A stretch of DNA of 64,000 nt from Candidatus Bathyarchaeota archaeon. GTDB lineage: Archaea > Thermoproteota > Bathyarchaeia > Hecatellales > Hecatellaceae. The notes beneath the pieces are model-generated. The model was not told the origin of the DNA and searched no databases. It saw only the letters and a program-made list of their open reading frames with translations. Position 1 is the stretch's first letter; every line of letters begins with the position of its first letter. Positions 4,704 through 19,998 of this stretch are shown piece after piece. The stretch lies in assembly GCA_052246995.1 (NCBI GenBank), contig JBQPWD010000006.1:32001-96000 (forward strand), written 5' to 3'. Position numbers and translations under genes: made by a program.

Positions 4704-5820
4704 TAGCTAAAAAATATTCTTCAACAACATCTTTAGCTTTTTCCCTTCTTTTTTGATGTTCCAGTAAAAATGCTCCAACCTTGTCAGCTAGTAAAGATTT
4801 ACACTCCCCACATAACATGCTGCCAGATTTACAACCACTCCAAATCCTCCTAATTTTACTATCATCCTCTTCAAAAAACCAGTAAAGATAATGGTATACG
4901 CTACAAATTTCAGGTGAACCTCCAAGTTTTTTCTGTTCCGCAACAGTTGGTTGACCTCCTGTAAACGCATTAAACACCTTTTTTCTAGCAACTTCAGGCG
5001 GGTCCACTACAAATATACATGTTTCAGGCTCTGAAGCGGACATTTTACCCTCCCTTCCAAGCCCTGGAAGAAACTTAGAATGTATTTGAGCAGGTTTATA
5101 GTATCCAAGTTTAGAGGCAACATCTCTGGCAACTCTCCAATAGGGATCTTGATCTATTGCTGCGGGAATTAAGCATGGAATGTTTTCTCCTGTTAATTCA
5201 GACTCTAAAAAGCAGGGCACGATTTGAATTGCCGGGAAAAATATTAAACCTATGTTTGTTGAATCCTCAAAACCAAAAACTGCACGAACAACTGAGAAGT
5301 TTATATGTTTAGCCACCTTGATAGCAAGCTTATACATTAAACCCATGTTTTTAATATTCGAAATTATCTTAGTTTTGTTCTTATCAAAACCTATTGCAAC
5401 AACATCTAAAGCATTATCATACATATAGCTTATTGAAGTTTCAACTTCAAAGTTGTGATGAATAAGAAATTTTTCGTCATCAGTCATTTGAAAGTAAAGC
5501 TTAGCATTAAAAGTATCTTGAAGATACTTTGTAAAAACCCATGGAAGTATATGTCCTATATGAACTGGACCTGAAGGCCCCCTACCAGTATAAAGAATGA
5601 ATTTTCCACCCGACATGTAAAAATTTAAAATCCAGTCAAAATCTCTATGACAGAAGAAGAAGTTTCTTCTTAAGAGAAAATGTAATTCTCCAGAGTACTT
5701 TTTAACCTTGTCTAAAATTTCCCCTACTAATGGTTGGGTACCAAACTTTTTTATAAGCTTCTCATAATCTACCTTACCAGAAACTTTCCATGGAGTTACA
5801 ACCATTTCCTCCTCTGCCAC
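4696..5820 (-). CDS. trpS: Tryptophan--tRNA ligase
   Basis: YTGRGPS, HIGH, AIDQDPYWR, KMSAS. Confidence 0.97.
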   Translation of the reverse strand: MAEEEMVVTPWKVSGKVDYEKLIKKFGTQPLVGEILDKVKKYSGELHFLLRRNFFFCHRDFDWILNFYMSGGKFILYTGRGPSGPVHIGHILPWVFTKYLQDTFNAKLYFQMTDDEKFLIHHNFEVETSISYMYDNALDVVAIGFDKNKTKIISNIKNMGLMYKLAIKVAKHINFSVVRAVFGFEDSTNIGLIFFPAIQIVPCFLESELTGENIPCLIPAAIDQDPYWRVARDVASKLGYYKPAQIHSKFLPGLGREGKMSASEPETCIFVVDPPEVARKKVFNAFTGGQPTVAEQKKLGGSPEICSVYHYLYWFFEEDDSKIRRIWSGCKSGSMLCGECKSLLADKVGAFLLEHQKRREKAKDVVEEYFLANV

Positions 5821-10299: not shown

Positions 10300-11214
10300 C
10301 TAAAATTTACCAAGCAACTGATTAACAAAAATTTTAGGGTCAAAAGGTTGTAAATCTTCATACCCACTTCCAACACCAACAAAAATTATTGGCTTTTTTG
10401 TTATGTACGAGATTGATATAGCCGCTCCACCTTTAGCATCTGCATCCATCTTAGTTAAAATTGAAGCATCAATAGGAACATATCTATTAAATTCTTCAGC
10501 TTGAAAAACGGCATCATTCCCAGTTAAAGCATCACCTACAAAAATTACAAGGTCCGGTTTAACAACCCTAACAATTTTACGCATTTCCTCCATAAGGTTT
10601 ACATTTGTTTCCATTCTTCCAGCAGTATCAATAAGAACAACATTTATCCCTTTTGCTTCAGCATGAAAAACTGCATCAAAAGCTACAGACGCTGCATCAG
10701 AACCATAACTATGCTTAATCATTTTAACTCCAAGATTTTTAGCATGATATTCAAGCTGCTCTATTGCACCAGCCCTATAAGTATCGCTACAGGCAACAAC
10801 AACAGAAAAATTGTTATCCAGGAAAAATTTTGCAAGTTTAGCTAGAGTTGTTGTTTTTCCACTACCATTAATACCAACAAAAACTATTGTAAGTGGTTTT
10901 CTTTCCATTCTTTTTTTCTCAGCAAGTTTTAAAAGCTCAATTTTTTCTCCACCACACGTAAGAACTTCAATTAAAACGTTCCTAACTAAGTCTTCAACAA
11001 CCTTTTTCTTATTGTCAAATCTTTTAACCTTAATTTCGCTAATCTTTTTAGCTGTTTCATCGATAATTTTTTCTGCAACTTCGAATGCAACGTCGTTCTC
11101 GATAAGTGTTAGCTTAAACTCTTCAAGTAGTGGTTTAACATCCTCTTCTGAAAGGCTTGTTGTTGAAACTTTATCAATAAAAGAGTTTAAAGCCTTCTTA
11201 AGTTTTTCAAACAT
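10300..11214 (-). CDS. ftsY: Signal recognition particle receptor FtsY (NG domain only)
   Basis: GINGSGKTTT, DTYRAGA, DTAGR, TKMDADAKGG; start taken at MFEKLK. Confidence 0.95.
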   Translation of the reverse strand: MFEKLKKALNSFIDKVSTTSLSEEDVKPLLEEFKLTLIENDVAFEVAEKIIDETAKKISEIKVKRFDNKKKVVEDLVRNVLIEVLTCGGEKIELLKLAEKKRMERKPLTIVFVGINGSGKTTTLAKLAKFFLDNNFSVVVACSDTYRAGAIEQLEYHAKNLGVKMIKHSYGSDAASVAFDAVFHAEAKGINVVLIDTAGRMETNVNLMEEMRKIVRVVKPDLVIFVGDALTGNDAVFQAEEFNRYVPIDASILTKMDADAKGGAAISISYITKKPIIFVGVGSGYEDLQPFDPKIFVNQLLGKF

Positions 11215-11222
11215 ACAAAAAT

Positions 11223-11666
11223 TCACGCTTTTAAGGCGCCAGCAACTTTTTCAGCTTCTCTTCTTAAAATTTCCATTCTTTCCAGTACATTTGAAAGTTG
11301 TTGTTGAAGCGAACTTCTTACATTGTTAAGCTCATTTGCCCTACTTTCAAGGAAAGATACGGCATCTTTAGTAGACTTTTCAATTACAACACCACCGCCA
11401 ACACCAACAAGAACCCTTTCAACGTTGGAAATTTTTGCTATAACATAAGAATTTGCACCAGTAGGTATAAGAAGTTCATCACCAACCTTAAGTTTTTCAA
11501 GGTTTTGAATAGTTGTAGCAGCTATGCTAAGCTCTCTAAGCGCTGAATCCACGATTCCGATTCTAACCTGCAACTCATTACTAACGTTTTCAAGCATTCT
11601 AAGTTCAACAACAAGGTTTCTTAGCTTTTCTTCTACATCCTTTTCCTGACTATATTTTTCACTCAA
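11223..11666 (-). CDS. pfdA: Prefoldin alpha subunit
   Basis: Coiled coils flanking ELLIPTGA and VLVGVGGGVVIEK; conserved position upstream of ftsY. Confidence 0.92.
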   Translation of the reverse strand: MSEKYSQEKDVEEKLRNLVVELRMLENVSNELQVRIGIVDSALRELSIAATTIQNLEKLKVGDELLIPTGANSYVIAKISNVERVLVGVGGGVVIEKSTKDAVSFLESRANELNNVRSSLQQQLSNVLERMEILRREAEKVAGALKA

Positions 11667-11905
11667 CGAAGCTCAACTCCCGCAATCATACGTATAAGAG
11701 GATTCCTAGCTTCTGCAGGATTTATCTCCTCAACCTTAACAATTTTTATCTCATTCCTTTTAAGCTTATTCTTGCTACCAATATCGCTGTAAACTTTTTC
11801 TAAAGCTTCCTTCAAACTTAAACCCCGAACCTCTTTACTAAAAAATAAAACTTTAAAGTTAACTTTAGCCTTGCACACAACCCTAAACGTTTTAACCTCA
11901 CTCAT
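11663..11905 (-). CDS. rpl18a: 50S ribosomal protein L18Ae/LX (eL20)
   Basis: FSKEVRG...EKVYSDIGSKNKLKRNEIKI; conserved synteny with pfdA-ftsY; start at MSEVK. Confidence 0.9.
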   Translation of the reverse strand: MSEVKTFRVVCKAKVNFKVLFFSKEVRGLSLKEALEKVYSDIGSKNKLKRNEIKIVKVEEINPAEARNPLIRMIAGVELR

Positions 11906-11958
11906 CAAAGACAACCCCACAAAAAGTAGGAGCAACATCATTTAAAATTAATGTTAGC

Positions 11959-12316
11959 GCGGTGGGTCCTAAGGCTTGACGCTCATACTACACCAAACCC
12001 CTTCAATCCTTCTCACACCCGCACTCCCCTAAGCGTCAAGCGTCCAGGTTTAGGTTGCTCCTTCCGGAGAGGTAACATGGAATACCTCTTCTCCCGGGCC
12101 TAGCCAGGTTCACCTGGTTAGATGGTTACCCAACCCCTACAGGTTGAGCAACCATCTCCGCCGACCCTAGGGGACAGGTGTTCATGGAAGGTTTTGGAGG
12201 AGTTTGATGTAGCTGTATGCGCCTCACCTTAGCTTTCGGCCCGCCGTATAGGGGGTTTGCGGTCGAACCCTTACGGGTTCTCAGGGAACCCCTAGCTCCC
12301 CGCCTAGACCCACCGC
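11959..12316 (-). ncRNA. ffs: Archaeal SRP (7S) RNA, intron-containing
   Basis: Terminal helix GCGGUGGGUC/GACCCACCGC; Alu loops UAGGG/CCCUA complementary; helix 6 with GUAG loop; helix-8 SRP54-binding symmetric loop CUAGG...AGCAACC; long helix 5. Confidence 0.93.
12062..12090 (-). other. Putative 29-nt BHB intron in SRP RNA helix 8
   Basis: Bulges AGA and AAG; central helix CGGG/CCGG (3 Watson-Crick pairs plus G.G); 7-bp inner stem AGAGGUA/UACCUCU; excision gives CUAGG-CCC-GGGA-GGG-AGCAACC. Confidence 0.75.
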
Positions 12317-12366
12317 AAAAGAATATGGTATAGAAAGTTTAAGATAAATTTTCCTTTAACTTTTCA

Positions 12367-13461
12367 TTACATCTTGTTAAACTTTAACTTTTTTTCTAAC
12401 GTCTTTTTTAGTTTATCTATTGTTTTTACTGGCGTTGGGTTTATTTTGTTTATAACTGCAAGGTAGAAGCTTACATAATCGCCGATGTATGTTGTTGAAA
12501 GCATTTTTGAAAGTTTACTTTTACCTTTGCCGTAAACCTCGAAAACTTTCTCTGTTTTTTCTTTCAAAATTTCCTTTAAGATTTCTATTCTAACTTTAAT
12601 CTCTAAAGGTTCATCGTTATCTCTTAAAAGTATAACTGAAAGAAAGTTTAAAAGGGGAGGTTTAATGTTTTCCCAACCTACAACCTCGTTATGGTTTAAT
12701 TCTGGAAGAATATCGTGTTTACAGAATACCTTACTGTTTTCGTTTATCTGAGTTTTCCACCTGTAAGCTACACTACTAAGCCATCTAAATCCGTAAATTA
12801 CTGGAAGCTTGTCTTTAAGGTTTAAAGCTAAAATTTTAGCTTCATTATGGTGTAGAGGTGTTGAGGGTTTTAAATCTTCATAAAGGCTTCTTAAAACATT
12901 TAATGCTTCCATGAATTCACTTCTAAACCCCTTAACTAACCCAAGCTTTTCCAGAATTAATGCTGGCGGTATAAAAAGGTAGGGTAAGGCAAGTCTGGGT
13001 TGAAAACCTGAAGGAACTTTAATATGTTTAACATTAAACCTTAAACAGTATTCTTCAAGTAGCCCACCTGAGCTTAAACCGATAATTGTGCAACCCTTTT
13101 TTGATGCTAAGGAAAAGCTATTCAAGGTTTCTTGAGTATTGCCAGAATAGCTTATGGCGAAAACAAGAGATTTGCTGCCTAAGTACCCTGGAATTATAGA
13201 GTCTCTGCAAACTTCCATGGATAAAGTAGCCTCCTCATAACACCAATCTTTTAAAAGGCTTCCACCAATAGAGGAGCCTCCCATGCCAAGGAATACAACA
13301 TTTAAAAAATCCTTGTTTTTAAGCCACTCCACATCAAAATTTTCAGCCAGCCTAAAAGCATCTTCATAGTAGTTGGGAGTAGATTTTAAGGCATCAGCCA
13401 TCCTAAAGCTATCAATTGTAGAAATAAGCTCAATATTATCTAAGTCATCTTTTAAAGACAA
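12367..13461 (-). CDS. Bifunctional phosphoglucose/phosphomannose isomerase
   Basis: GMGGSSIGG, SYSGNTQET, QPRLAL, RWKTQINENSK, PELNHNE. Confidence 0.93.
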   Translation of the reverse strand: MSLKDDLDNIELISTIDSFRMADALKSTPNYYEDAFRLAENFDVEWLKNKDFLNVVFLGMGGSSIGGSLLKDWCYEEATLSMEVCRDSIIPGYLGSKSLVFAISYSGNTQETLNSFSLASKKGCTIIGLSSGGLLEEYCLRFNVKHIKVPSGFQPRLALPYLFIPPALILEKLGLVKGFRSEFMEALNVLRSLYEDLKPSTPLHHNEAKILALNLKDKLPVIYGFRWLSSVAYRWKTQINENSKVFCKHDILPELNHNEVVGWENIKPPLLNFLSVILLRDNDEPLEIKVRIEILKEILKEKTEKVFEVYGKGKSKLSKMLSTTYIGDYVSFYLAVINKINPTPVKTIDKLKKTLEKKLKFNKM

Positions 13462-19879: not shown

Positions 19880-19998
19880 GCGGGGGTCGCCAAGCCTGGT
19901 CAAAGGCGCAGGAGCCTATAAGAAGAAGCTTGTAGGCGGCGAAAATGAGGATCCTGTCCCGTAGGGGTTCGTGGGTTCAAATCCCACCCCCCGCACCA
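19880..19998 (+). tRNA. tRNA-Leu(GAG) with 31-nt intron at position 30/31 (19913-19943); CCA encoded
   Basis: Acceptor GCGGGGG/CCCCCGC, D-loop AAGCCUGGUCAAA, long variable arm CCCGUAGGGG, T-arm GUGGG-UUCAAAU-CCCAC; anticodon 19947-19949 after splicing. Confidence 0.92.

Follow-up and report, generated by a model that had tools for sequence, protein, structure and literature searches.

Within the window, a 64,000-nt stretch from the genome of a hot-spring archaeon of the Bathyarchaeia (1,530,043 bp in 17 contigs, completeness 100, contamination 0.54), the SRP (7S) RNA gene is interrupted in the tip of helix 8 by 29 nt which, on comparative sequence evidence, are highly likely to be a BHB intron that would be removed by EndA and RtcB before SRP19 and SRP54 bind. 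Splicing is supported because this is the sole SRP RNA gene of the genome, inserts recur at one site in distant lineages, the stem inside the insert covaries, the predicted product equals the tip of uninterrupted relatives and the enzymes are encoded. From these observations we infer cleavage, ligation and a mature RNA lacking the 29 nt. SRP RNA is universal and essential; its helix-8 tip makes contact with helix 6 and SRP19 and lies next to the SRP54 site.

The gene matched the Rfam family Archaea_SRP (RF01857), which has a gathering score of 96.5, with 163.7 bits (E 3.8e-38), and the match covered the whole model. It was the only RF01857 match in the whole 1.53-Mb genome; the Rfam search of this genome (completeness 100) did not reveal the additional intact copy that a first-pass annotation of this DNA had considered. 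Genes for SRP19 and SRP54 are present elsewhere in the same genome. The gene and its neighbours are arranged as follows.

11960..12315, minus strand: SRP (7S) RNA gene, 356 nt including the insert, aligned to RF01857 model positions 1-317
12338..12348, minus strand: TATA-like AT-rich element TTTATCTTAAA, located 23-33 nt ahead of the first base of the RNA, read from the sequence
10300..11941, minus strand: downstream genes, on the same strand as the SRP RNA
11663-11941, minus strand: ribosomal protein L18Ae, downstream of the SRP RNA
11223-11666, minus strand: prefoldin, downstream of the SRP RNA
10300-11226, minus strand: FtsY-like SRP receptor GTPase, downstream of the SRP RNA

The AT-rich element TTTATCTTAAA (12338..12348) is the putative promoter of the SRP RNA, and a scan for bacterial-type promoters gave no match. 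A T4 tract after the end of the RNA may serve as its terminator. The SRP RNA lies upstream of L18Ae, with 18 nt between its end and the L18Ae start codon. A co-directional run on the minus strand (10300-13461) comprises a phosphoglucose-isomerase-like SIS protein, the SRP RNA, L18Ae, prefoldin and the FtsY-like SRP receptor, so that the RNA and its receptor are neighbours.

The presence of a 29-nt insert at 12062-12090 in the helix-8 tip, as the first-pass annotation had proposed, was confirmed by reading the minus strand and by the Rfam alignment, where the apical loop of helix 8 measures 31 nt in the gene vs 2 in the model. The minus strand reads ...CUAGGCCCGGGAG[AAGAGGUAUUCCAUGUUACCUCUCCGGAA]GGAGCAACC..., the bracketed 29 nt running from 12090 down to 12062. 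The helix-8 tetraloop with its short G-C stem beside the AGG/AGCA loop is absent from the gene as encoded and is present only once 12062-12090 is removed. On direct reading the elements follow the order helix-bulge-helix-bulge-helix that makes up a BHB motif.

12091..12315, minus strand: 5' exon, ending ...AGGCCCGGGAG, which contributes the central helix's 5' strand together with two bases of the bulge
12062..12090, minus strand: BHB intron (predicted), 29 nt, consisting of A, inner stem, 8-nt loop, inner stem, CCGG and AA
11960..12061, minus strand: 3' exon, starting GGAGCAACC (SRP54-binding side of helix 8), from sequence and Rfam alignment
12093..12096, minus strand: central BHB helix, 5' strand CGGG, exon, direct reading
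12064..12067, minus strand: central BHB helix, 3' strand CCGG, intron, with G at 12065 where the congener has C
12090..12092, minus strand: 5' bulge AG|A, predicted cut between 12091 and 12090
12061..12063, minus strand: 3' bulge AA|G, predicted cut between 12062 and 12061
12068..12089, minus strand: intron hairpin with inner stem h' AGAGGUA/UACCUCU (7 bp) and loop UUCCAUGU

The 5' exon boundary at 12091 is fixed by uninterrupted relatives. In the central helix, C12096-G12093 against C12067-G12064 forms three of four pairs with one G.G, and the inner stem pairs 12089-12083 with 12074-12068 over 7 bp around the loop at 12082-12075. Direct inspection thereby reproduced the BHB described earlier, with bulges AGA and AAG, helix CGGG/CCGG including its G.G mismatch, and the 7-bp stem AGAGGUA/UACCUCU. 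The exon-side helix is CC/GG beside the non-canonical pairs of the helix-8 loop. If it forms as in the mature RNA, G12061 of the 3' bulge, which can pair with C12097, is taken up and the bulge shrinks to 2 nt; only with this 2-nt bulge does helix h contain two Watson-Crick pairs, a 3-nt bulge leaving one such pair plus non-canonical ones. At least two Watson-Crick pairs in h belong to the definition of the canonical hBHBh' motif in the available text of PMC7714728. The motif is of the relaxed kind, with a strong H, 5' bulge and h' and a weak h, and differs in this from the textbook hBHBh'.

Folding of an 86-nt fragment around the insert gave z = -1.77, with 12 of 200 shuffles folding equally well. 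The single sequence of the window is on its own no better than chance, and it is the comparison with other genomes that raises it above chance. In the minimum free energy (MFE) fold of the same fragment, the central helix adopted a CCGG/CCGG register shifted by one, with a 4-nt bulge; in that modelled register the 5' cut could move by one base.

Each bulge is cleaved by the tRNA-splicing endonuclease between its second and third bases, a rule that fits the 7-nt anticodon loop produced from canonical tRNA introns. Cuts placed by this rule, with no free parameter, join the exons as ...CCCGGGAG|GGAGCA... (GGAGCAACC side). The joined tip, CCC-GGGA-GGG-AGCA, is the tip encoded by intron-less relatives, and no other pair of cuts yields it. 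What the first-pass annotation had called a consensus helix 8, CCC-GGGA-GGG, is indeed the literal sequence of most intron-less relatives. The rule also holds where the tip differs: the relatives of one interrupted genome, G029, have CTC-GGGA-GAG, and its 3' exon starts with A, as required.

We compared the helix-8 tip across a class sample of 151 Bathyarchaeia genomes searched with Rfam, which gave an SRP RNA match in 134, and the tip could be read in all 134. It was uninterrupted in 126 of these genomes, where it is a 10-mer, mostly CCCGGGAGGG (CCC-GGGA-GGG) and otherwise CTCGG[GA]AGAG with a few variants; removal of the insert restores this conserved tip. The remaining eight genomes, from five families, are interrupted at one common base, directly after ...CGGGAG, by inserts of 17-101 nt.

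G000 (the genome of the window) and G001, family f1, genus g1, 2/2 genomes: inserts of 29 and 30 nt
G017, family f5: insert of 17 nt
G029, family f15: insert of 18 nt
G060, family f11, genus g23: insert of 60 nt
G038, G043 and G067, family f14, genus g29, 3/3 genomes: inserts of 101, 91 and 101 nt

Each of the eight carriers has a single SRP RNA match. Within genus g23 the insert is found in G060 and is missing from G030 and G105; with one member interrupted and two congeners uninterrupted, its presence varies inside one genus. The introns of genus g29 (L035 in G067, L036 in G038, L037 in G043) have in common an internal GCCUGA[AG]C and long predicted hairpins. In another Bathyarchaeia genome, two SRP RNA matches lie 1.3 kb apart on one contig (G077:C44:3279-3591 and 4913-5230; L051, L052) with 165.9 and 119.5 bits, and both tips are uninterrupted. 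Permuted SRP RNA genes were considered for genus g15, in which one of seven genomes has an Rfam match, and were ruled out. BLAST with the one intact SRP gene of that genus found pieces at contig ends in three of the five genomes tried (G021, G036, G041; L153-L155), and these pieces are assembly breaks; an SRP gene repeatedly broken at contig ends explains the six genomes without an Rfam match.

The first-pass annotation had suggested a survey of relatives for variable inserts at this site, and varied inserts of 15-101 nt are now seen at this one base in no fewer than 16 genomes, which belong to Bathyarchaeia, to another Thermoproteota class and to Asgard lineages. When a single genome of each prokaryotic species was scanned for AGGCYCGGGAGA followed by CCSGAWRGAGCA with 9-39 bases in between, 13 stretches were returned, where roughly two chance matches were expected. 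Ten of them lay in SRP RNA context, including G001, G017 and G029 from the class sample. The seven new stretches belong to two Baldrarchaeota, Jordarchaeum, two Promethearchaeota and two further archaea; every one is an RF01857 match above the gathering score (113-168 bits), and the five of these genomes that were searched whole contain one SRP RNA match each. The other three stretches (Bacteroidota, Myxococcota, Thermoplasmata), without SRP context or Rfam match, were rejected as chance matches. A looser pattern, applied to 400 genomes of the phylum that includes G154, matched 11 times, six of them in SRP context; the five outside it were set aside, and the reversed-pattern control likewise gave five. 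A scan of 401 Thermoproteota genomes yielded nine matches against eight in its control. Four were true cases (G000, G001, G060 and, from another class, G628), and five were not introns: three uninterrupted tips with a chance downstream match, one tRNA region and one stretch that is not SRP. All these patterns are restricted to the GGGA-type tip and a bounded gap range, those of the species-level and Thermoproteota scans also to an AGGC start, and coverage of every tip type comes from the class sample only.

Interrupted SRP RNA genes lose score in covariance-model annotation. In G628 (L172 1276-1630), which carries a 15-nt tip insert, the SRP RNA scores 90.6 bits, below the gathering score of 96.5, so standard annotation would miss the gene.

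The introns of L034 (G060), L035-L037 (genus g29) and L057, L062 and L063 (Baldrarchaeota and another archaeon) have the common ends AUGG(A)...(U)CCACCCGAA around differing interiors. That families f11 and f14 of the Bathyarchaeia have the ends AUGGA...UCCACCCGAA in common with Baldrarchaeota suggests shared descent or transfer, and constraint could alternatively account for it.

The BHB shape was evaluated on 15 distinct inserts. The inner stem played no role in the selection of any of them, while the seven pattern-scan cases had been selected via the BHB core; constancy of the core is therefore independent only for the eight class-sample cases, found via Rfam. The central helix CGGG/CCCG has all four pairs in 14 of the 15 inserts, the copy in the window alone having three (G.G). 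The 5' bulge is AG|A, 3 nt, throughout (15/15). Twelve of the 3' bulges read AA|G, two AU|G and one AA|A; pairing of the G to an exon C reduces this bulge to 2 nt in several MFE folds. In all 15, an inner stem of 2-7 bp starts at the base directly following the bulge, although its sequence varies by lineage (AGAGGUA, AGGAGUU, GCU, UG, UGGAUG, UGGAG, CGGUG, CAAUU and others). Together these stems sum to 70 bp, compared with 10.1 ± 4.0 (maximum 29) for shuffled interiors, and none of 5000 shuffles reached 70. With the 3' partner shifted by 1, 2 and 3 bases, the stem totals were 0, 2 and 7 bp. Single-sequence MFE folding of local fragments recovered the canonical central helix in 8 of 15, and single-sequence thermodynamics is decisive neither for nor against the BHB. 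The BHB of the window is the least canonical of the 15, given its G.G mismatch and shifted MFE register.

Comparison of G000 with its congener G001 showed how the insert changes. Of 327 exon positions, 15 differ between the two; in the insert it is 11 of about 30 columns, an approximately eight-fold higher rate, and the 7-bp inner stem has undergone three double compensatory changes with all pairs kept. Fast change combined with a preserved stem indicates that the insert evolves like an intron constrained by shape alone.

These data bear on the proposal that the 29 nt form a retained expansion segment, an elongated helix 8 that the mature SRP RNA would keep. The unspliced RNA of this genome could then even offer a substitute tip CC-GGAA-GG from 12067-12060, and CCGGAAGGAGCA does resemble a 2-bp helix 8 tipped by GGAA; the contigs examined also contain no spliced RNA. 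We nevertheless consider retention improbable. The congener and all other cases have CCCGAA and thus no GNAR-like substitute tip, the insert is both present and absent inside one genus, and it evolves about eight times faster than the exons around it. Across cases of 15-101 nt the sequence is unconstrained, and all that stays constant is what EndA requires: the 4-bp helix, the bulge positions and the abutting stem.

The predicted intron has matching machinery in the genome. Two EndA-family ORFs of 183 and 254 aa (G000 C6:127074-127625 and C7:54733-55497) each contain N and C (catalytic) domains, and the pair of paralogues suggests a heteromeric enzyme; RtcB is encoded as well (601.6 bits). The EndA of this host may belong to the heterotetrameric endonuclease family, to which the accessible part of PMC4731332 ascribes the most relaxed BHB recognition. 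Introns were predicted in 13 of 44 tRNA genes by the intron mode of ARAGORN. Among its calls is a tRNA-Leu with a 31-nt intron at 19880-19998 on the plus strand, missed by default ARAGORN and by Rfam at the gathering score. Two other calls in this genome, a 'tRNA-Pyl(cta)' with an 18-nt intron (G000 C2:139181-139274, minus strand) and a tRNA-Val with a 741-nt 'intron' (G000 C9:6293-7133, minus strand), are probably mis-calls of intron-bearing tRNAs.

Cleavage need not imply precise joining, and the BHB might be cut with its halves left unjoined or joined imprecisely, giving two base-paired pieces or, in the shifted register, a tip shortened by one base. In favour of this outcome are the G.G mismatch and the MFE register with its 4-nt bulge. 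We give it only a slim chance: RtcB is encoded, the canonical cuts produce exactly the tip of the relatives and the central helix of the congener is perfect. RNA termini near the helix-8 tip are, moreover, called problematic for SRP RNA function in the portion of PMC4731332 at hand, which also describes an 'Open' (non-circularised) S-domain construct tested in SRP19/SRP54 binding assays. Cleavage at the canonical positions followed by exact ligation is the reading we prefer.

Contigs of four sequencing runs (X1, X4, X2 and X6) contained no exon-exon junction, those of X6 stopping before the intron and 3' exon. X1 and X4 are labelled as metatranscriptomic WGS and are probably DNA; X2, a DNA run, is a possible source of the assembly. 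One long X1 contig spans the region unspliced with 0 differences, and separate X4 and X2 contigs cover parts of it, also unspliced. X6 is an RNA-seq metatranscriptome of sediment from a different, single study. One of its contigs (172 letters, depth 1533) matches 12091-12259 without a difference. The match breaks off precisely at 12091, where the predicted 5' exon ends, and the three remaining letters of the contig are unlike the intron. The congener differs at nine positions in 12091-12259, which assigns the contig to this species or a very close one. Its end fits splicing and equally an intron-less strain or a graph break, and is not counted as evidence.

An assembly artefact, or a decaying pseudogene that has acquired an insertion, is extremely unlikely. 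That the genome is a metagenome assembly is all that could be said for it. Three runs gave contigs that cover the whole stretch with 0 differences, although this DNA may itself come from two of these runs, and the congener, which was assembled independently, has an insert of diverged sequence at that base; a pseudogene is at odds with a sole SRP RNA gene that scores 163.7 bits.

Taken in sequence, the preferred splicing pathway would begin with transcription of the gene as a 356-nt precursor in which the helix-8 tip cannot form, exon CGGG being expected to pair with intron CC(C/G)G to present bulges AG|A and AA|G and the intron hairpin. The tRNA-splicing endonuclease, for which two EndA paralogues are encoded, would then cut after G12091 and after A12062, and RtcB would ligate the exons and circularise the 29-nt intron. 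The product would be a 327-nt linear SRP RNA with the tip CCC-GGGA-GGG, then able to take SRP19 and SRP54. The linear, cis-spliced SRP RNA put forward in the first-pass annotation thus gains comparative backing from inserts at the same base, the constant core, the covarying stem, the match of the product and the encoded enzymes.

BHB introns have tRNA, rRNA and cbf5 mRNA as hosts. Like rRNA BHB sites and the cbf5 pre-mRNA intron, the present case is a non-tRNA substrate of EndA and RtcB, here a predicted one; unlike it, BHBs in rRNA serve mostly to release whole rRNAs from their precursors, and the host molecule differs. With archaeal tRNA introns it has in common that the same enzymes are encoded in this genome. 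Set against the hBHBh' introns of archaeal tRNAs, as far as they are described in the available text of PMC7714728, it agrees in the 4-bp central helix, bulges on opposite strands, the h' helix, a refoldable product and small inserts (15-101 nt), and differs in that the host gene is SRP RNA, the exon-side helix has 2 bp and the 3' bulge can collapse to 2 nt.

The closest precedent comes from Thermoproteus tenax and T. uzoniensis, whose permuted SRP RNA has its ends at the helix-8 tip and becomes circular; according to the accessible text of Plagens et al. 2015 (eLife, PMC4731332), the leader/trailer BHB is cut by the tRNA-splicing endonuclease and ligation, for which RtcB is proposed, restores the loop. 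In both systems, judged against that text, the site is the helix-8 tip, which would arise only after BHB cleavage and ligation. They differ in that the gene order is normal here, with the BHB halves flanking an internal insert, and the expected products are a linear RNA and a small circular intron, not a circular SRP RNA. The hosts differ too, Thermoproteales in one case and Bathyarchaeia in the other. A 'simple BHB intron' was postulated, not shown, as the ancestor of the permuted Thermoproteus gene (PMC4731332, in its available part). The first-pass annotation had similarly suggested that the present gene could represent the source state of permuted SRP RNAs. This fits the hypothesis of Plagens as given in that part of PMC4731332, but only in kind, because a host in the Bathyarchaeia makes the gene an analogue and not an ancestor.

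No description of a cis-spliced intron in SRP RNA was found in the full-text literature searched, a scope that leaves out most subscription journals and supplements; in the part of PMC6391926 available, SRP RNA appears only regarding nuclear export. The mechanism is already known; the host RNA is very probably new, and to judge from the sequences the intron very probably recurs at one site in Bathyarchaeia, in another Thermoproteota class and in Asgard archaea.

A wider interpretation is possible, although we think it less likely than not. BHB introns may have inserted at the helix-8 tip repeatedly, and perhaps since ancient times, in both Thermoproteota and Asgard archaea, because the exon already gives half of the BHB there (CGGG and two bulge bases); SRP assembly might be gated by the tRNA-splicing machinery, the SRP19-bound tip existing only post-splicing; and the intron state might be the direct precursor of permuted circular genes such as that of Thermoproteus, by rearrangement within the intron. 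The genes described here would be numerous real examples, Asgard included, of the 'simple BHB intron' state postulated in PMC4731332 (as far as its available text goes), which makes the path from intron to permuted gene directly testable.

If the intron is real, SRP RNA joins tRNA, rRNA and cbf5 mRNA as a host of BHB introns, and if only splicing creates the helix-8 tip, these archaea would depend on EndA and RtcB for protein targeting.
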